Of a DNA stretch of 64,000 nucleotides, positions 21,349 through 30,947 are shown in pieces. The position numbers and the translations under genes were made by a program. The notes below the pieces were generated by a model. That model made no database searches and was not told the DNA's origin. It worked only from the letters and a program-made list of their open reading frames with translations. The DNA lies in contig JAGNWT010000001.1 of assembly GCA_017985935.1 (NCBI GenBank), positions 32,871-96,870 of the forward strand, given 5' to 3'. This DNA comes from Anaerolineales bacterium. GTDB lineage: Bacteria; Chloroflexota; Anaerolineae; Anaerolineales; Villigracilaceae. How positions within the stretch are numbered: position 1 is the first letter of the stretch; each line of letters opens with the position of its first letter.

Positions 21349-21648
21349 TTAGGAATCCAGGATCGGGCGGGTGGGACCGGTACGAGGTCGCGGGGGCGGC
21401 GGAGTACGGCGGTGATTGCTCGTGGGGTGACCCGCATTCGGATCCAGGATCATATTGAGCCACGAGATCGCCTTCTCATCATATTCTCGCTTGCCGCACA
21501 CATCGCAAACCCACGCAGGAAAATGCGGTACCGTGACCAACTCGTTACCAAGCCAGGTAAAGTAGGTAACAAATCTCGGTTGAAGAATGCCGGTGTGGCA
21601 TTCATTGCACGGAAAAGAATTCACAGGGTTATTATTTTGTTCGATCAT
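21349..21648 (-). CDS. YgiT-type zinc finger protein
   Basis: CNEC...VPHFPAWVCDVCG..EY; Pro/Arg-rich tail, no HTH. Confidence 0.8.
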   Translation of the reverse strand: MIEQNNNPVNSFPCNECHTGILQPRFVTYFTWLGNELVTVPHFPAWVCDVCGKREYDEKAISWLNMILDPNAGHPTSNHRRTPPPPRPRTGPTRPILDS

Positions 21649-21657
21649 CACAATACC

Positions 21658-22275
21658 TCATTGCACCAGTAATTCCTTATGTTGGATCACTTCCCACATG
21701 GGCGGAGGCCAATAGATCACCACAGCCTTGCCCACCACATTTTCAGCGGGCAACAGCCCCCAGGAATGTGAATCGGACGAATCATTGCGGTTATCTCCCA
21801 ACACGAACAATTGACCATCAGGCACGAACCATTGTCCCGCATAAAGCGGAGCCGATGCGATGTAGGGCTCATCCAGCACTTGACCGTTCACGGTCACCTT
21901 GCCCTCACCAATGATCACCCGATCGCCAGGCAAACCGATCACCCGTTTGATCAACTCCTGGGTGGGATCCATAGGGAAGTGAAACACAATAATATCGCCG
22001 CGTTGAATATCGCCAAACCGGTAATTCAACTTGCTGACCAAAACAAACTCGCCGTCTTCCAAGGTCGGGCGCATGCTAAACCCATCCACCCGCACACGAG
22101 CCGAAACCGCATTGATCCCCAAAAAAAGAACGACCGCCAAGACAAGAGTCTCAATAATATCCAGCGCAAAACGCCCCCAATTCATACTATCTTCCATAGG
22201 CGCAGAGACCGGAGTCACAGCCTGCTGTTCTTCGGTTTGCCCTTCTGGTTGTAAAGTCTCCAAACGTGCCTCCAT
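21658..22275 (-). CDS. lepB: Signal peptidase I
   Basis: GFSMRPTL (Ser), LIKRVIG (Lys), GDNRNDSSDS. Start set at 22275 because a minus-strand TATAAT lies in the track's first codons. Confidence 0.92.
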   Translation of the reverse strand: MEARLETLQPEGQTEEQQAVTPVSAPMEDSMNWGRFALDIIETLVLAVVLFLGINAVSARVRVDGFSMRPTLEDGEFVLVSKLNYRFGDIQRGDIIVFHFPMDPTQELIKRVIGLPGDRVIIGEGKVTVNGQVLDEPYIASAPLYAGQWFVPDGQLFVLGDNRNDSSDSHSWGLLPAENVVGKAVVIYWPPPMWEVIQHKELLVQ

Positions 22276-22331
22276 ACCTTTCTTTATTTCGATGGGATTA
22301 TACATCGCTTTTTTTCGAAGTCCACTGGGTC

Positions 22332-23045
22332 TTAGGTCTTACCCCAGGCAAAATAGGTCGGCACATGCAGGGCGCGCCTCCCGGCCTTGAAGGCATCTTC
22401 ATCCAAAACCTTCATTTTTTGGATCTCACCTTCTGGAGCAATCCCTGCCAGATCAGATTCGATCACCGCCCATTCATTCTCCCGCTCTTCGGCAGAGCGC
22501 ATCACCAACCCGCCCTGAATGGGTCCTGTTTCCATCAGTTTAATCCCCGCCTGAAAAAAAGTCTCTGCCAGCATGGACCCAAATGATGGATCAGCTCCCT
22601 GCCTGCGGAGAGACTCGGTCTGCCACTCGCCCAGCGGCTTGAGCGCGGACGGCTCATCTACACGCAAGATGTAATCAGGCTCCGCAAGTGCCAGCACGCA
22701 ACGCCCCACCCGGGCCATTTCTCGCACAACCTGCAAGGGGTCTCGCACCCACAGCAAAAGAAAATGACAATAGACAATGTCGAAAGATTGGTCGGGATAT
22801 GGCAGATGATGCGCATCACCGCATAGGAGCGAAGCACCCGGAGCGTGGATTCTGCACTCGGCGAGTGAAGCAGGCTCAAGGTCCAGACCGTGAACGGCGC
22901 AAGGAATTTCGCGCAAGATCGCACCTGTACCGCATCCCACTTCAAGCACGCGGCGCGCAGAGTTCATTCCCGCCTGCTCAAAAACATAAGCCCGCAGGTC
23001 TCGGGTCCACGCCGCCTGTTGAAGATAACGGGTGTGCCAGTTCAT
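22332..23045 (-). CDS. Class I SAM-dependent methyltransferase
   Basis: VLEVGCGTG, GDAHHLPYPDQSFDIV; ATGA overlap with the upstream phosphatase. Confidence 0.85.
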   Translation of the reverse strand: MNWHTRYLQQAAWTRDLRAYVFEQAGMNSARRVLEVGCGTGAILREIPCAVHGLDLEPASLAECRIHAPGASLLCGDAHHLPYPDQSFDIVYCHFLLLWVRDPLQVVREMARVGRCVLALAEPDYILRVDEPSALKPLGEWQTESLRRQGADPSFGSMLAETFFQAGIKLMETGPIQGGLVMRSAEERENEWAVIESDLAGIAPEGEIQKMKVLDEDAFKAGRRALHVPTYFAWGKT

Positions 23046-23593
23046 CCTTCGCAAAAAATTTTGTTGTTTTTGGGTTCGTCCCACCAGTTGAGGACGAACT
23101 GCATTTGTTCTTCGGTTTCAGGGGAAGTTGAAAGATAAGGGTTGTTCGGTCTTGTTTTGTAAAGTTGATCGACCTTTTTCAACGCCTGTTCATTCGGCAT
23201 GCCGCGCCGCACAAGGTGGCAGCCGACGACCATGCCTGTGCGCCCCACCCCGCCCCAACAGTGAACGTACACACAGCCGCCATTCCTGATGGCATCATCC
23301 ATTGTGTCGAGGATGGAGGTCATCAGGTCAGAGGAAGGGACGCCGTGGTCACGGATCGCAAAGCGATGATGAGAGGCGATCACTCCATAGAGTTTTGCCT
23401 GTTCTTTGAGAATTTTTTCATACGGAGGGAGTTCATGCTCGCGCGTCAGGTTGATGAAGGTAGTGACGCCCGCTTCGAGAAAAGCGTCAATGCGGCGGCG
23501 CGTGGTTTCGGCATCGTAACTGCCGGGGTACTCACCCGCAAGAAAACGATTCTCCTCCACCCAGTAGGATTCGACGATGGGAAGTTTTTTCAT
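23042..23593 (-). CDS. Protein-tyrosine/dual-specificity phosphatase family protein
   Basis: VHCWGGVGRTG (CX5R); IRDHGVP general-acid loop. Confidence 0.88.
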   Translation of the reverse strand: MKKLPIVESYWVEENRFLAGEYPGSYDAETTRRRIDAFLEAGVTTFINLTREHELPPYEKILKEQAKLYGVIASHHRFAIRDHGVPSSDLMTSILDTMDDAIRNGGCVYVHCWGGVGRTGMVVGCHLVRRGMPNEQALKKVDQLYKTRPNNPYLSTSPETEEQMQFVLNWWDEPKNNKIFCEG

Positions 23594-23622
23594 ATTTTCA
23601 AGGATACCATAATCGAAAAAAG

Positions 23623-24678
23623 TCACTCCGCTGTGTACGAGCACACGTTCTGAATGATCTGTTGGCGCAGAGCGACCATTTCAGGGAAGTCATAAAAGAA
23701 GCGGATCTTCTGGTCAATGACGCTATCGCCTTCGGGTTTTGGCTCCAGCACAAAGTAAGTGAAGGACTCAGCCATATCCTCATGGATGTTCGAGGCGGCG
23801 TAGTCACGCACAAATTCATTTTCGTGCCGGCTGTAAAATTCATCCACGAGAGCGAAATATTCATCATCCGTATCGGCACGTACTTTCTCAACGGTATCGC
23901 GCCATTCCTCGAAGATGTCGACCCAGAAGGCTTGGTAAAAATGATTGATGTACGAATCAGGTGTCGAGCATCCGTTGGGGTCCAAATACTGTTTACAAAA
24001 AGAAGGGTTTTGCCCCCAGCCAAAATAAAAGTCGGAAGGAGGGATCTGGTCTGTGTTCAGGGTGAGCAAATGTCCAAATTCATGGACGAGAGTGTAGGTC
24101 AGGTAAACAGGTTCCTGCGCGTCGATGATATCCACCGCCAACTGCCAGCTTGAGCGGTCTGCCTCGCCGCGCGGACTGACCCACGCCAGAACATTATCCG
24201 CGTTGTCGGTGAAGATGTAATACTCGCCGATCCATTTCAGTTCATCGGGCGGAAGAAGCGCAGAGGCGTAATCCCAAACCATTTGCTGGGTTTCTAGATC
24301 CTCTTGAAAAGATTTGAATTCCTGCGGCGCGTAAAGCATCAAAGGTTCGCCCAGTTCGCCGTCCTTCACTTTGTAAGTCACCAGATTCAAGTCTGCCTCG
24401 GTGCCGGCATAATCGCCGCCAAGGGATTCGATCTGCCCGATCGAGATCGCATCCTGGATCCTGACGAGGCAGGCGTTCAGGCAGGAATCATCCACGCAAG
24501 TGATGGGATGCGGCGTTGGGCGCGGCGTGGATGTGACCTGCGTCTCTGTTTCAACGACGAGAGTTGCCTCGCTTACAAGCGGCATTTCTGTGGCTGAAGG
24601 AGGCTCGGTCGGCATCAAAGTCTGGCAGGAGATGGAGGCAAGAATCAAAACAAAAATAGCGGCGAGGATTCGTTTCAT
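23623..24678 (-). CDS. Lipoprotein with a zinc metallopeptidase motif
   Basis: Lipobox-like LASISC, Thr/Pro linker, HEFGH and distal EDMAESF. Confidence 0.75.
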   Translation of the reverse strand: MKRILAAIFVLILASISCQTLMPTEPPSATEMPLVSEATLVVETETQVTSTPRPTPHPITCVDDSCLNACLVRIQDAISIGQIESLGGDYAGTEADLNLVTYKVKDGELGEPLMLYAPQEFKSFQEDLETQQMVWDYASALLPPDELKWIGEYYIFTDNADNVLAWVSPRGEADRSSWQLAVDIIDAQEPVYLTYTLVHEFGHLLTLNTDQIPPSDFYFGWGQNPSFCKQYLDPNGCSTPDSYINHFYQAFWVDIFEEWRDTVEKVRADTDDEYFALVDEFYSRHENEFVRDYAASNIHEDMAESFTYFVLEPKPEGDSVIDQKIRFFYDFPEMVALRQQIIQNVCSYTAE

Positions 24679-25886: not shown

Positions 25887-26894
25887 CTATTTGCTGAGTA
25901 TCGCAAGGTCTTGAACAAAGAATAGGATGATATATCCGATGAGAAGCACCACCCAGCCGATCAGTTCGGCTCTTTCCATGATGCCCTCCCACGAAAGGGA
26001 GAAATTATCTTTGACGGTCTGGACGATGCTCTCCAGATTATCTAGTTTGGCTTTTACATTTTCCTTCCAGTCCTTGAGGTAGAACTCGCTCTGGATGGCT
26101 TCGTAAAGTTTCGCGGTGTACCAATCGCCGATGAGCAGCAGGTTCTGTTCGGCGCGTTCAAAGTCCAGCATGACCTCAAGCTTGTGTTCGGCGATCTGGC
26201 GGATGACGCCGCGTGTGGCGCGTGGTCTGCGTTTGTTCTTGAAAAAAGTTTCGCTGATCTTATCCAGCATGGTGTCGATGGATTGATCGAGCATGCGGTA
26301 GCGCAACAACTGGTAATTGCCGATCTTAAGCAGGGCAATGTCGGATTGATAATCGTCGTTGGGCGCGATGATGACCGCGCCTTCCCAATCGACAAGTGTG
26401 AGTTCCTCGGCGGAGTAGCGGGTGCGCGAGATGAGAATGTCGTCGATCTCGCTTTTGTCGAACACTTCACGCTGCGAACGGATGAACTTGGTGAGGGCAA
26501 GCGCGTTCTTCTCGATCCATTTATCGGGCGTGGGTTTTGCCTCCTGCACCAGCAGAACGGTGTACTGTTCGAACAGTCCGTTCTGGCGGTATTGGGTCGG
26601 GATGAATTTGCTCTCCAGCGCAGCCTGGATCTTTGCCCGCTCCTGCAGAACCGATGCGGCGAATGGATTCTTTAACTCGAAGTGACATTCCACCAACTGC
26701 ACACGACCATCATAACGCTGACGCATGACCAGCACCGCATGCCCTTCAATGAGGACGGTCTCTTCGCCAAGCGGGACAATGTCGATATCAATAGGCTGGA
26801 AGTATGGCGCATCCTTTAGTCCCTTAAATGGGTCAGGGACGGGGGCTGTGCCGTCGTCAGTGTCGGGGAAGGCGATGAGGTAGCAGATTTCCAT
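25887..26894 (-). CDS. Hypothetical membrane protein, RMD1/DUF155-like (tentative)
   Basis: VDWEGA..NYQLLRYRMLD..IGDWYTAKLY..FYLKDWKENVKAKL pattern plus C-terminal TM helix; start 26894 (track 27056 overlaps the PAS gene). Confidence 0.65.
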   Translation of the reverse strand: MEICYLIAFPDTDDGTAPVPDPFKGLKDAPYFQPIDIDIVPLGEETVLIEGHAVLVMRQRYDGRVQLVECHFELKNPFAASVLQERAKIQAALESKFIPTQYRQNGLFEQYTVLLVQEAKPTPDKWIEKNALALTKFIRSQREVFDKSEIDDILISRTRYSAEELTLVDWEGAVIIAPNDDYQSDIALLKIGNYQLLRYRMLDQSIDTMLDKISETFFKNKRRPRATRGVIRQIAEHKLEVMLDFERAEQNLLLIGDWYTAKLYEAIQSEFYLKDWKENVKAKLDNLESIVQTVKDNFSLSWEGIMERAELIGWVVLLIGYIILFFVQDLAILSK

Positions 26895-26931: not shown

Positions 26932-27273
26932 TCAGGCACGGATAAAGTGCGGAAGTTCAAGCGGGATCTCCAATGAGAGTTCCACAAAGCCCGCGTAGCT
27001 GCCGTCTTTGTACCACGGCGATTGATAAATGAGCTTTTTGACTCCGTTCTTTTCAATAGTGTACACGTTCTTCTGGTGCGCGGCGAGCAATCTTTCGACC
27101 TTGTTACGGGCAGGGTCAGGGTGACAGTCTAACATGTTCGAGCCAACCAGTTTATAGCCACCGTCCTTTTCAAAGGTCCTGGCGGCTTTGTCGTTCATTT
27201 CAAGGATGATGCCTTCCTCGTCACAGACGGTGATGGCGGCGGGAAATTCTTTGATCCATTCGTGGTCAGACAT
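26932..27273 (-). CDS. Stand-alone PAS domain protein
   Basis: ITVCDEEGIILEMN..A, G-x-N-x-x-DCHP PAS pattern; 113 aa; GGAG RBS. Confidence 0.8.
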   Translation of the reverse strand: MSDHEWIKEFPAAITVCDEEGIILEMNDKAARTFEKDGGYKLVGSNMLDCHPDPARNKVERLLAAHQKNVYTIEKNGVKKLIYQSPWYKDGSYAGFVELSLEIPLELPHFIRA

Positions 27274-27319: not shown

Positions 27320-28681
27320 TTAACCAGCGACCTGTAAAACTTCCAAGTGCAACTGATGTCCTTCAAACTTAAGCGGGCATCCCCCGCCGCACTCGGCAAC
27401 AAGGGAACAGGTCTCGCATTTGAAGGGCAGGTTCTGGCGTTCGCGCAACTGAACAGAGAGCTTGTGATTCCAGATCGAGTCCCATGAGTCGGTAAGGAAG
27501 TTGCCTAGCGGCTGGTAATAGGATTGGCAGGGAAGCACATTGCCATTGGATTCAATGCACATGCTGTAAAGCGCGGCAGTGCAGCCTTTCACTCCCAGGT
27601 TGCTCGCTGTGGGGTCGAACTCACAGTATTGGGTCGGCGTGTACCAGATGAGCCTTTGTCCACGGGCGGCGGTCTTTTGGGTGGCGACATCCAACAGGGG
27701 CTGCAACTCGCTCTCGCGCAGCCCCGTGCCAACGGTCAGACCTTGACCGGAAAGAATAAGGGCGTTGAGCCCAATGGTGGGGACTCCGTTATCGGCGAGA
27801 AAATCCAGCGTGGCGGGAATCGTATGCGCGTTCGTTCTCAGCATGGTGGTATTGGTCATCACGTAGAGTTTGGTCGCGAGGGCATTATTCAGCCCCGTTA
27901 TCGTCTGCTTGAACGCACCCTTTGCGCGCATCATTTCGTCGTGGATCTCAGGCACGCAAGATTCGACCGTGATCTGAACATGGTCAAGCCCGGCATCAAC
28001 AAGTTGTTGGACGTAATCCATATCCATCAGACGGCGGGCGTTCGTGTTCAGACCTGTGATCTGCCCGTTGCGTTCTGCATGCCGGATCAACTCTGGAAGA
28101 TCGTTTCGCAAGGTCGCTTCGCCGCCCGTGAAAACAATGTGCGGCACGCCCAAATCCCACAGCTTATCGAGAGTGGACTTCCATTGGTCGGTGCTGAGTT
28201 CGGGAAAGTTCCGCTCGCGGGCGTTATAGCAATGAGCACAGTCGTTGTTACAGCGATATGTGATGGCAAGGTCCATGCGGTAAGGCGCGGATGGTCTCGC
28301 ACTGAAAGGCATCACCGTATCAAGATCAAGTTCGTGGACGGGACATGCGCCATCGGGGCGCAGCAATTCAGAAAGTTGAACCTGAAAATCGGACAAGTCC
28401 GTGAACGCCTGGGTTTTGCTCACACGATAATTTCTGCGGATGGCGCTCAGCGCCTGATCTTCGCTTACTTTTTCCAATGTGAGATATGCCATGAACGCCG
28501 CGGTCGGATTCAGGTGCATGACACTGCTGGCATTGACGATGAGCGTGCCCGTGCCATCGGGGTCAATGCGGAGATGAATACGTGATTTCTCGGACCCATC
28601 TTCGCGCTGGTAATGATACAAGCCCGAGCCGGGGTTTTCGATCGAGGATTTACGATTAAATAGATTACTAAATAAACTCAT
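27320..28681 (-). CDS. Radical SAM/SPASM domain protein with an N-terminal RRE (PqqD-like) domain
   Basis: CNNDCAHC, FTGGEA, SPASM CTAALYSMC..GNVLPC and CETCSLVAECGGGCP; N-terminal LNPTAA...YRVSKTQAFTDL PqqD-like segment. Confidence 0.93.
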   Translation of the reverse strand: MSLFSNLFNRKSSIENPGSGLYHYQREDGSEKSRIHLRIDPDGTGTLIVNASSVMHLNPTAAFMAYLTLEKVSEDQALSAIRRNYRVSKTQAFTDLSDFQVQLSELLRPDGACPVHELDLDTVMPFSARPSAPYRMDLAITYRCNNDCAHCYNARERNFPELSTDQWKSTLDKLWDLGVPHIVFTGGEATLRNDLPELIRHAERNGQITGLNTNARRLMDMDYVQQLVDAGLDHVQITVESCVPEIHDEMMRAKGAFKQTITGLNNALATKLYVMTNTTMLRTNAHTIPATLDFLADNGVPTIGLNALILSGQGLTVGTGLRESELQPLLDVATQKTAARGQRLIWYTPTQYCEFDPTASNLGVKGCTAALYSMCIESNGNVLPCQSYYQPLGNFLTDSWDSIWNHKLSVQLRERQNLPFKCETCSLVAECGGGCPLKFEGHQLHLEVLQVAG

Positions 28682-28723
28682 GCTGACCTTTTCTCTGATC
28701 AATAAAGATTGAACCTGTCAAAT

Positions 28724-30382
28724 TTATCTTCCGCCGCCGGCACAGGCGCAGGCGCAGCCCGCACAGGCACAAGCGCAGGCACATGAACGTCCACCGCCGC
28801 CACCGCTCCGTCCGCTGGAAGTGGGTTTGGGCGGAGGGTTCGTGGCGCCTGTGATCTTCTCGGTGAAGGTGTTGACATTGCCCACGACCTTCGAGGAGAA
28901 GGTCTGCACGCCCGTCACCACTTGCGCGGCAAAGTCTGCGCCGGGCAGGGCTGTGCGGCTCGAGGGCTGACCCATGCTCGGGGTCGGGAATCCGCTCGAA
29001 GCCTGGGTGGGACGCGGGGCATAGGTTGGGTTATATCTCCCCCACCAATGCGGAAGGAAGATCGGTCCGTTGAAGACGCGCCGCGTGCGATCGTCGTAAT
29101 CTTTGTCGAGCATGGTCCATTCGAGGGCTTCGTCAAATTTCTGGCTCTTGACCTCTGGCGTGTCGGCGGCTTCGATCTGCTGCCAAGCTTTTTCCATGAT
29201 GGACTTGTAATACGCGACGGTTTCCTTGCGGCTGAATCCGCGCATCTTTTCTGAAACACTCTTGACCAACGCGATCATCATCGCCTGCAAGTCACCCTGA
29301 CGGGTCTTTTTATCTGCGGTCTTGAAAGCCTTGAGAAAATCCTTTTCGTACTGATGCAAACCATCGGGGGTGGGGTTGGCAACATCCAACTCGAGCGGGT
29401 CGCGGGTCTTGACCGATGCCGCCTCTTTCTTAATGGCGCCAAAGAGGATCATGGTCAACACCTTGTCGAGCGGCTGCTCCATGAGGATGGCAGATTCCAC
29501 AGCGGTCAATCCGCGCTTGATGCCGTGACCTTCAATGGCGACCTTGGGCGGCATGTACTGCATCTTGCGGCGTTGATTGCCGATCGCTGTCAATGTGGGA
29601 GCGCCAATGAACATGAAGGCAAAGAAACCGCAGCATATCACGTTGAAAATGGTGTCGGTGCTGATCAGCGGCTCGGAAGCAGGGACGGTAATGCTCTCCG
29701 CAGGGACGTAGGTCTTTGGGAAGGATGCGCCGAAAAGATAATATTCCGACGCGTTGGCCGAAGGTGAATACCAGGTATAGGTCACCCGGTTCTCTGAGTC
29801 ATAGACCGATTGCGGCTCAGATGGAAACCCCGAAGGCGCCGCGTGCCAACGCGGTTCCTGCTCGTTCATATTCGGCGGCAGATGAAAGGTGAGCGTGAAA
29901 TCAGTATTCCCTGTTACATACTGCGAGCCGAAATAAGTGGGAGCAAATGCGGCGCTGGCGTAGGCTTCGTCGTTATCGTCTGGATACAGCACGCCGGTGA
30001 TCCGGCCGACATAAACATGCACGGTTGCGGTTCCGCCGGCAGGGATGGATTGACTTCCAAGCACAACAGCAAAACCCGATCCACCTCCCTGATAATCGCC
30101 GGTCGAGACCGATACAGGCACCCCGTCCACATCGGCTTGGATCGTGCCGGTATCAAAGTTGTAGTTAGGCATGCCCACATCTACAAAGTCGATCTCATGC
30201 GAGTCGGGTTGGTTGGTGAAGACCCACGTGTAATCCAAACTTTGAGAGCCGTCTGAATTCCAATAGACGTGCACCACCTGTTTGTTCACTTGAAAGTAAT
30301 ATGGAAGGTCCTGCGCAGATACATTCGCTGCGCCCCCCATCGTAAGCAAAATCACCAGTGCGAATAAAAATATTTTTTTCAT
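28724..30382 (-). CDS. DUF2207-like single-pass membrane protein with a C-terminal Cys-Ala repeat tail
   Basis: Signal peptide, beta-rich exported domain, TM helix (NVICCGFFAFMFIGAPTL), cytoplasmic domain, Gly linker, tail SCACACACAGCACACAGGGR; GGAGG RBS. Confidence 0.85.
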   Translation of the reverse strand: MKKIFLFALVILLTMGGAANVSAQDLPYYFQVNKQVVHVYWNSDGSQSLDYTWVFTNQPDSHEIDFVDVGMPNYNFDTGTIQADVDGVPVSVSTGDYQGGGSGFAVVLGSQSIPAGGTATVHVYVGRITGVLYPDDNDEAYASAAFAPTYFGSQYVTGNTDFTLTFHLPPNMNEQEPRWHAAPSGFPSEPQSVYDSENRVTYTWYSPSANASEYYLFGASFPKTYVPAESITVPASEPLISTDTIFNVICCGFFAFMFIGAPTLTAIGNQRRKMQYMPPKVAIEGHGIKRGLTAVESAILMEQPLDKVLTMILFGAIKKEAASVKTRDPLELDVANPTPDGLHQYEKDFLKAFKTADKKTRQGDLQAMMIALVKSVSEKMRGFSRKETVAYYKSIMEKAWQQIEAADTPEVKSQKFDEALEWTMLDKDYDDRTRRVFNGPIFLPHWWGRYNPTYAPRPTQASSGFPTPSMGQPSSRTALPGADFAAQVVTGVQTFSSKVVGNVNTFTEKITGATNPPPKPTSSGRSGGGGGRSCACACACAGCACACAGGGR

Positions 30383-30419: not shown

Positions 30420-30824
30420 CTACCACTTCGGTTCTTCTGTCAGTTGATAGACCGTGCCGCAGAAGGGACATTCCACCGTAGGCGCGCCTGCGATCATCTT
30501 TACATTATCGGCCTTCAATGAGCCGCCGCAGGATCTGCACTTCATCTGCTCAACCTTGGTCTGGGCAGGCAGATCGATCTTATAGGTGATGTTATCTCCG
30601 CCGCCGCCAGCCGCCTTTTGCCTGCTCGCAAAAACGATCAGCCCAATGCCTCCTCCAAGGAAAGCCACGCCAACGCAGGAGAAAGCAATGCCAAAGGTCA
30701 GCCACGACCCGCTCCCCTGGGCGGAGGTGGAACCGATGACACTTAATACGCCATAGCCAAAGAGGCAAACTCCGATCAACAACAAAATCCCCGCTCCGAT
30801 ATACATTAATGTCTTGTTGCCCAT
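30420..30824 (-). CDS. Two-TM membrane protein with a C-terminal zinc ribbon
   Basis: Two hydrophobic helices, then CRSCGG...CPFCG; AAGGAG RBS before ATG 30824. Confidence 0.8.
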   Translation of the reverse strand: MGNKTLMYIGAGILLLIGVCLFGYGVLSVIGSTSAQGSGSWLTFGIAFSCVGVAFLGGGIGLIVFASRQKAAGGGGDNITYKIDLPAQTKVEQMKCRSCGGSLKADNVKMIAGAPTVECPFCGTVYQLTEEPKW

Positions 30825-30947
30825 ACGAATGAAACTCCTTATTGATCCGACTACCAAACTACATACGTAAAGTTTAGCATTTTCGTCTCATAAAGGCATG
30901 TGACTTTCATCCATTAATCTTCCTATGTCAGTCCAATTCAAAATCTG

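Follow-up and report, generated by a model that had tools for sequence, protein, structure and literature searches.

We analyzed a 64,000-nucleotide stretch (hereafter, the window) of the genome of an Anaerolineales bacterium from the phylum Chloroflexota (contig JAGNWT010000001.1, positions 32,871 to 96,870), focusing on a minus-strand gene for an enzyme that combines a RiPP recognition element (RRE; RiPP, a peptide that is synthesized ribosomally and modified post-translationally), a radical S-adenosylmethionine (SAM) core, and a SPASM domain. Our results support the view that its product is a complete RRE–radical SAM–SPASM enzyme without a conventional precursor gene. It is probably a RiPP-type maturase for which a 552-aa membrane protein, encoded upstream, supplies the substrate in its cytoplasmic C-terminal tail, this tail being the embedded precursor. 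The link between the maturase and this tail is strict, and it extends across two domains of life, from bacteria of sludge to Asgard archaea.

Architecture and relatives of the enzyme

The open reading frame (ORF) of the enzyme is open from a TTG codon at 28702 and ends at 27320 on the minus strand; the start codon is likely ATG 28681, which is preceded by AAAAGG and yields 453 aa. An earlier model-made annotation based on the letters of the window and its reading frames (hereafter, the sequence-only reading) placed the gene 42 bp past the stop of a gene with a CACA tail, and this distance is confirmed, the stop codon of the tail gene mapping to 28724–28726 on the same strand. The same reading had called the product a complete RRE–radical SAM–SPASM maturase, with which the Pfam domains, the predicted fold, and the conserved cysteines agree.

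The Pfam matches of the enzyme are Radical_SAM (90.6 bits) and SPASM (35.4 bits, cut-off 21.5); the PqqD match, residues 55–111, scores 21.8 bits, just below the cut-off of 23.4, and the NCBIfam lasso-PqqD model scores 19.5 bits. Many orthologs of the enzyme carry PF05402. A single-sequence AlphaFold2 (AF2) attempt reached a pLDDT (predicted score in the local distance difference test) of only 40, and the model was built from an alignment of 65 sequences (pLDDT 87, predicted template modeling score 0.88). In this model, strands 20–27, 32–39, 45–49, 53–57 and helices 59–69, 74–85, 89–107 are followed by the radical SAM barrel and SPASM. The four strands and three helices of residues 20–107, modeled with pLDDT 85–96, form an N-terminal RRE fold with one additional N-terminal strand, in line with the PqqD-like N-terminus after a short beta extension proposed from the sequence. 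Residues His36 and Arg38 (the HLR motif) and Asn58 of the RRE are invariant in orthologs, as are Cys144, Cys148, and Cys151, which form the radical SAM motif CX3CX2C that had also been noticed earlier.

The C-terminal half contains Cys353 (in YCEF), Cys367, Cys375, Cys385, Cys422, Cys425, Cys431, and Cys435, of which two sets fit the SPASM motifs Cx9-15Gx4C (C367-x12-G-x4-C385) and CX2CX5CX3C (C422-x2-C425-x5-C431-x3-C435). The sequence-only reading, which counted seven SPASM cysteines plus an extra one in YCEF, was correct in the total of eight; its assignment of the extra residue needs a slight correction, given that in 53–65 orthologs (39–82% identity) Cys353 is invariant together with all others except Cys375, which is retained in 91%. 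Orthologs from archaea and from other phyla have the canonical terminal SPASM cysteine, 10–11 residues past CX3C; it is missing from most Chloroflexota ones, including that of the window, and the orthologs missing it always have Cys375 (codon 27557–27559 in the window; C-termini compared with those of orthologs from loci L081, L083, L093, L094, L098, L101, L106). Among 53 full-length orthologs, 41 have only Cys375, seven have both residues, five have only the terminal cysteine, and none lacks both, a pattern suggesting that one cluster ligand was exchanged for another in evolution. Eight cysteines via one residue or the other in 53 out of 53 orthologs are enough for two fully ligated auxiliary clusters. 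A seven-cysteine SPASM with an open iron for a substrate cysteine was considered and rejected, the eighth cysteine being present in every ortholog examined.

No NCBIfam model reaches its cut-off on the enzyme, the best being AhbD (118 bits), NirJ2 (116 bits), and PqqE (116 bits) against cut-offs of 381–500. The models for non-peptide substrates, AhbD, NirJ, NirJ2, and AhbC, yield 108–118 bits against 500–650, and the matches of AhbD, NirJ, and AhbC span only the radical SAM core, residues 146–344, that of NirJ2 extending to 440. The peptide-related models also score far below their thresholds: PqqE (TIGR02109), 116 vs. 381 bits; MftC (TIGR03962), 88.5 vs. 265; SkfB (TIGR04403), 87.3 vs. 300; AlbA (NF012164), 65.8 vs. 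850; StsB (NF045574), 87.8 vs. 625; and the radical SAM/SPASM protein of the ACGX system (TIGR04340), 65 vs. 400. The RiPP maturase models MftC, WgkB, StsB, and SkfB score about 88 bits each, and the CrpC and QhpD family models are not among the 25 best NCBIfam matches. With all scores far below the cut-offs, the enzyme belongs to no named family. The top Foldseek matches of the model in the PDB are SkfB (E = 2.5e-18), SuiB, PqqE, and CteB, with SuiB and CteB aligned over 431–456 columns; phmmer against PDB sequences also yields SkfB (E = 1.8e-20), and a weak similarity to the lipid enzyme GDGT-MAS. Clustering with enzymes of known non-peptide substrate, named by the sequence-only reading as a possible refutation, was not seen, the respective scores being approximately 116–118 bits vs. 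cut-offs of 381–500. We regard the enzyme as representing a new family, so far without a name, within a known kind, with a putative substrate that is unconventional and embedded in a protein. The system as a whole fits no Pfam or NCBIfam model, and a search of the literature on Cys–Ala repeats and on radical SAM tail systems of Anaerolineae or Asgard archaea found no description of it.

The tail protein and its association with the enzyme

The 552-aa protein, which ends with GGGGGRSCACACACAGCACACAGGGR, consists of a signal peptide (residues 1–24), an outside domain, one transmembrane helix (approximately 239–268), and a cytoplasmic part of approximately 285 aa. Hydropathy shows only the signal peptide and the one transmembrane helix, followed by QRRK; thus the last ~285 residues, including the tail, are predicted to be cytoplasmic and reachable for an Fe–S enzyme. 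The family has no Pfam match in 36 members, no PDB relative by profile, and no matching NCBIfam model. The tail is more conserved than the remainder of the protein.

The last ~90 residues read like an embedded precursor with a leader, a linker, and a core. In 127 tails aligned on NPxP, the 45 residues ahead of it show strong conservation (LPGxDFAASVVxGVQxFSxxVVGNVxxFTxxVTxxTNPxP), and in a cross-phylum alignment of 36 sequences Pro516 and Pro518 are at least 90% conserved; residues 479–518 are a candidate RRE recognition sequence. A Gly/Ser/Arg-rich linker separates NPxP from the core, which begins 14–25 residues past the NPxP start and in the window is (CA)4G(CA)3GGGR, 19 residues with seven cysteines. 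The enzyme thus has a putative cognate substrate with leader and core encoded beside it, in the unconventional form of the C-terminus of a 552-aa protein. This agrees with the earlier proposal that the CACA tail sits in the place of a precursor, which is backed by the co-occurrence, adjacency, peptide-level selection, and leader–linker–core layout.

Selection on the peptide is seen in the variation of the tail. All 20 homologs fetched by whole-protein similarity (54–78% identity) have a C-terminal (CA)3-5G(CA)3 followed by GGGR (19 cases) or GCGR (one case), and in all 20 an ORF with CX3CX2C is next to the tail gene. There are 143 nucleotide versions among 157 tails, using both Cys codons, all four of Ala, all four of Gly, all six of Arg, and all three stops; as synonymous codons vary freely, it is the peptide that is under selection. 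Within the last block, Ala, Gly, and the terminal Arg are no less fixed than Cys. When the C-terminal 91 residues were used as a phmmer query of 1.84 billion representatives, without forcing the core pattern, only 169 matches (library clusters) were returned, essentially all with the module at the extreme C-terminus. Of the best 150 of these 169, 101 have the canonical core; in the others, S, VS, or DS takes the place of the middle Gly, or the number of blocks is one ((CA)5-6GGGR) or three, and the most constant unit among the 150 is the last block, CACACAGGG. Two loci with variant tails, L160 and L161, retain the enzyme.

Some genomes have two tandem tail genes ahead of a single enzyme (L004, with a 255-aa ORF; L109, with two tails; L161, 273–3571), and in some library members, 766–838 aa long, the outside domain is duplicated.

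The tail protein and the enzyme occur together: the same 25 out of 41 relatives have both. The back-translated tail was found in 23 out of 301 Chloroflexota genomes (its reversed control, in none), and an enzyme ortholog scoring at least 446 bits is present in the same 23, always adjoining the tail. In a 24th genome, a 42%-identical enzyme and a permuted tail, GGCACACAGCACACACAGGGR, share the same cassette. None of the 301 genomes has an ortholog without the tail, and the remaining ones give no enzyme match even at E ≤ 1e-40, aside from a radical SAM paralog of the same cassette that is most likely non-catalytic (hereafter, the dead paralog; 147–237 bits). All other radical SAM/SPASM genes stay under 240 bits.

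Scanning one genome per species with the back-translated core yielded at least 120 stretches, the matches listed comprising 80 loci with 81 tails. These loci are mostly from Chloroflexota; other bacterial ones belong to Acidobacteriota, Planctomycetota, Zixibacteria, Coatesbacteria, Aminicenantes, Fermentibacterota (Sabulitectum, Hyd24-12), and Clostridia, and Asgard ones to Heimdall-, Hod-, and Promethearchaeota; the 81 tails represent about ten bacterial phyla and three Asgard lineages. All 81 end with GGR-stop, an ending not forced by the search pattern. The true enzyme is the next gene for 67 of the 78 listed tails that could be assessed, and one tail gene is separated from the enzyme by a second tail gene. 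Frameshifts in long-read assemblies account for several of the apparent exceptions. The full five-gene cassette, i.e., the Zn-ribbon protein, the tail protein, the enzyme, the pseudo-enzyme, and the methyltransferase, is present in a cultured strain, Ornatilinea apprima P3M-1 (L079, NZ_LGCL01000045.1, 1379–6799).

In L055, L070, L082, and L096 (MFD long-read metagenome-assembled genomes), frameshifts split the enzyme or tail genes, and such splits inflate the count of apparent exceptions and of short “tail-only” ORFs. A divergent sub-type, in which the enzyme is approximately 41–42% identical and is not directly after the tail, is seen in L088 (2065–3747), L112 (2906–4201), and L156 (6672–8318). 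In L088 and L112, the true enzyme is on the opposite strand, and the tail gene of the sub-type is followed by the dead paralog. The L088 enzyme has its own Cys/Gly-rich C-terminal extension (GGGGCSGCSGSCG), and its neighbors are an ORF resembling REP-type transposases and a 290-aa homolog of the cytoplasmic domain that has no tail.

In the maximum-likelihood tree of 65 enzymes, 52 Chloroflexota-type ones form one clade, with the divergent Chloroflexota enzymes of L088 and L112 outside, and the Heimdall- and Hodarchaeota enzymes form a pair branching among bacterial phyla, the deep order being without resolution. Judging from these sequences, cross-domain transfer of the system is likely. The distance matrices of the enzyme and of the tail-protein body correlate with r = 0.90, as expected for any two vertically inherited genes. 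An enzyme from a contig binned as Syntrophothermus, Bacillota (L090) is one of these 52, is 77% identical to that of the window, and is nested in the Anaerolineales clade; the contig is probably mis-binned.

The search for a separate precursor was negative. The gaps in the operon are 37–46 nt long and contain no independent small ORF, in accordance with the sequence-only reading, which had found no small Cys-rich ORF there. The sole Cys-rich candidate, a 38-aa ORF at 28668–28784 on the minus strand (MCLRLCLCGLRLRLC...) that runs from the tail gene across the gap into the enzyme gene, is the Cys–Ala codons read out of frame, and it cannot be conserved because its cysteines hang on synonymous third bases that vary between orthologs. 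Eleven possible free precursors inspected among library matches of 47–180 aa look like contig-edge fragments, frameshifts, or internal-Met calls and were rejected. A precursor encoded elsewhere, the other refutation named earlier, was not found either, as the 3.8-Mb genome codes for (Cys-Ala)3 nowhere else.

Possible modification of the tail and competing explanations

If the tail is the substrate, the RRE would grip the leader-like segment of the tail protein, and the enzyme would cleave SAM and abstract hydrogen from core residues, joining Cys sulfur to Ala or Gly carbons in thioether cross-links (sactionine or ranthionine/lanthionine-like). A class I methyltransferase would then methylate the cross-linked product, with the cluster-less paralog and the Zn-ribbon membrane protein possibly being a scaffold or chaperone. 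Covalent modification of the tail seems fairly probable; its identification as a thioether we offer tentatively. Thioethers are favored because the nearest characterized relatives that act on Cys-rich cores (SkfB, CteB, StsB) make them, because possible acceptors are limited to Ala, Gly, Cys, and Arg, and because Ala and Gly are as fixed as Cys, unlike in a simple metal-binding motif. There is about an even chance that the tail of this receptor-like, single-pass membrane protein is turned by the dedicated enzyme and the methyltransferase into a protein-bound, multiply cross-linked, methylated structure that stays attached and has a conserved cellular function in at least ten bacterial phyla and Asgard archaea; a ladder of thioethers is conceivable, as is a redox or metal site rich in sulfur.

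Several observations weigh against the tail being processed by the enzyme. The RRE is marginal when scored by sequence alone, and the best NCBIfam scores of the core are for AhbD and NirJ2, which have non-peptide substrates, along with PqqE. Among the 78 listed tails, five have no enzyme within the 8-kb locus, and five are followed by the dead paralog, two of these with a diverged enzyme nearby. The leader-like motif is weaker in distant and archaeal forms, and NPxP is missing from 16 of 147 unique tails. In CteB, a substrate cysteine reportedly binds the open iron of an auxiliary cluster; with two fully ligated auxiliary clusters, such binding cannot be invoked here. Finally, Cys-X-Cys repeats are classic ligands of metals and clusters, and the tail could bind a metal unmodified.

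The last point leads to the main rival explanation, that the tail is an unmodified metal or Fe–S site, and that the enzyme docks on it by the RRE and acts elsewhere, the docking serving to anchor it at the membrane, to transfer electrons or sulfur, or to assemble clusters, or else builds a metallocluster on the tail. Seven cysteines in the CxCxC spacing would suit such a site, as would the membrane location of the tail protein and its Zn-ribbon membrane partner, and the radical SAM core scores best against the cofactor-modifying AhbD and NirJ2, and against PqqE, with the GDGT-MAS similarity pointing in the same direction. Nevertheless, spacer residues of metal-binding Cys motifs usually drift, whereas in the last block of this tail Ala, Gly, and the C-terminal Arg are fixed like Cys in both bacteria and archaea; moreover, the top fold matches are peptide maturases, with the RRE-bearing SuiB and CteB aligned over 431–456 columns, and the methyltransferase partner in most complete loci suits covalent tailoring. 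We regard an unmodified site as unlikely.

A cleaved product or a different substrate is less likely still. The tail might be a carrier whose modified core is cut free as a diffusible RiPP or redox cofactor (cf. PqqA, MftA), leaving the membrane protein as a scaffold. The leader–linker–core layout, the invariant C-terminal GGGR, which recalls C-terminal cores of cofactor precursors, and the sub-threshold matches to PqqE and MftC are compatible with this, but the conserved core cassette contains no protease or exporter, the nearby HExxH lipoprotein and signal peptidase being conserved only in the genus of the window and its near relatives; no free-standing precursor was found among the phmmer library matches; and the membrane-protein body is itself conserved and co-varies with the enzyme. 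Release of the core is therefore rather improbable. The lowest probability we assign to modification of another cassette protein, e.g., the Zn-ribbon one, or of an unlinked substrate, so that the link with the tail would mean only a shared complex. The Zn-ribbon protein is indeed retained in most loci, including one archaeal locus; however, its gene is absent 5′ of the tail gene in the Heimdallarchaeota locus, its cysteines form an ordinary CxxC...CxxC ribbon, and it is the tail to which the enzyme is linked strictly and in both directions.

RiPP-type radical SAM maturases are known mainly for small secreted peptides, and to our knowledge there are only a few cases of whole-protein action (QhpD, CrpC). 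The preferred reading, a maturase acting on the membrane-protein tail, resembles the RRE-fused thioether synthases SkfB, CteB, and AlbA in the N-terminal RRE, the CX3CX2C core, the C-terminal twitch/SPASM clusters, and the Cys-rich substrate encoded beside the enzyme, with SuiB being alike in fold, and SkfB, SuiB, and CteB provide the best PDB sequence and fold matches. It differs in that a membrane protein of ~550 aa would provide the substrate with its C-terminus, in place of a peptide of 30–60 aa, and in having neither protease nor exporter; the system behaves like a conserved cellular function and not a sporadic natural-product cluster. With Haft's ACGX-repeat system (TIGR04340), it shares a radical SAM/SPASM enzyme and a short Ala–Cys–Gly-rich repeat, but here the (Cys-Ala)n repeat ends a large protein. 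StsB makes three nested Cys-to-Gly sactionines in StsA of Streptomyces sparsogenes (PMC10288494). The alternating-Cys (CxCxC) core followed by Gly acceptors is common to the StsA/StsB/StsC system (PMC10288494) and the last block considered here, CACACAGGG; in contrast, StsA, a free peptide, has GxGxG acceptors and a loop of four residues, and the RRE of StsB is a separate protein (PMC10288494). Precedents for whole-protein substrates encoded nearby are the RRE–SPASM protein CrpC, which installs thioethers on CrpA in Methanococcus voltae (PMC13692751, 2026), and QhpD, a radical SAM enzyme cross-linking the whole protein QhpC (PMC7876137). CrpA, however, is soluble, has a mass of 28 kDa, and combines an N-terminal leader with ten CxxQ/D repeats of 17 residues each (PMC13692751), QhpC is an enzyme subunit (PMC7876137), and neither has a Cys–Ala tail or a membrane anchor.

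Should the tail indeed be modified, the protein modification would be a new one, probably with a new cellular function in anaerobes; it would also indicate that the substrates of “orphan” maturases, those lacking a precursor gene, may be embedded in proteins. A direct test is feasible, given the 19-residue core and the cultured cassette-bearing strain, O. apprima P3M-1.

Neighboring genes of the cassette

The gene order in Chloroflexota is the Zn-ribbon membrane protein, the tail protein, the enzyme, the pseudo-radical-SAM protein, and the methyltransferase (coordinates in the window are given in the table). The Zn-ribbon gene 5′ of the tail gene is retained in Chloroflexota, several other phyla, and one Promethearchaeota locus.

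Table. Features of the cassette in the window, with the evidence used for each.
Feature	Coordinates	Strand	Evidence
RRE–radical SAM–SPASM enzyme, 453 aa	27320..28681	minus	Pfam, AF2, Foldseek
RRE (PqqD-like winged helix) of the enzyme, residues 20–107, extra N-terminal strand	28361..28624	minus	AF2 secondary structure, PqqD matches
CX3CX2C cluster motif, Cys144/Cys148/Cys151	28229..28252	minus	invariant in 65 orthologs
SPASM region, residues 353–435, eight Cys	27377..27625	minus	Pfam SPASM, conservation
Putative substrate, 552-aa type-I membrane protein with Cys–Ala tail	28724..30382	minus	sequence, hydropathy
Leader-like conserved segment, residues 479–518: LPGADFAAQVVTGVQTFSSKVVGNVNTFTEKITGATNPPP	28829..28948	minus	column conservation
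Core CACACACAGCACACAGGGR, residues 534–552, C-terminus	28727..28783	minus	homolog conservation
145-aa membrane protein, C-terminal Zn-ribbon, usual first cassette gene	30420..30857	minus	sequence, synteny
113-aa PAS-like protein between enzyme and paralog	26932..27273	minus	weak PAS matches; some Chloroflexota loci only
335-aa protein, C-terminal transmembrane helix, no family	25887..26894	minus	clade-specific accessory
Pseudo-radical-SAM paralog, 375 aa	24751..25878	minus	Pfam PqqD (27 bits) and Radical_SAM
Class I SAM methyltransferase	22332..23084	minus	Methyltransf_11 (73.5 bits)

The pseudo-radical-SAM paralog, seen in Chloroflexota loci only, retains the RRE and the GGE motif, lacks the SPASM cysteines, ending ahead of CX2CX5CX3C, and has CX3CX2C in none of 40 orthologs. 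The RRE is its region closest to the enzyme, including the HLR and NAS-VM-LNPTAA motifs, and from this comparison it is most likely a non-catalytic partner binding the same leader. In L159 (G257:C35, 2598–3752), from the same family as the window, the paralog (57% identical) is present alone, with neither tail nor active enzyme, being either a relic or a sign of its own function.

The methyltransferase follows the enzyme in most complete loci, and the order tail protein–enzyme–methyltransferase is retained in Planctomycetota, Zixibacteria, Coatesbacteria, and three Asgard loci. It reaches no NCBIfam cut-off, the best matches being the DVU_1556 family and BioC. The PAS-like and the 335-aa membrane-anchored proteins are insertions of the lineage of the window; the start of the latter at 26894 was set where the ortholog alignment begins.

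In a promoter and terminator scan, promoter-like sites are not above chance and terminator-like sites are approximately twice the shuffled mean, none of them lying between the tail gene and the enzyme. PADLOC yields only generic viperin and methyltransferase similarity and no sign of a defense system.

Further downstream, genes at 23042–24678 and 21349–22305 are conserved only in the genus of the window and near relatives, outside the cross-phylum core. Their products are a dual-specificity/protein tyrosine phosphatase-like phosphatase (HCWGGVGRTG), a lipoprotein with HExxH that is secreted, and signal peptidase I, along with two further proteins, a Cys-rich zinc-finger-like one of 100 aa and one of 182 aa without a known family.

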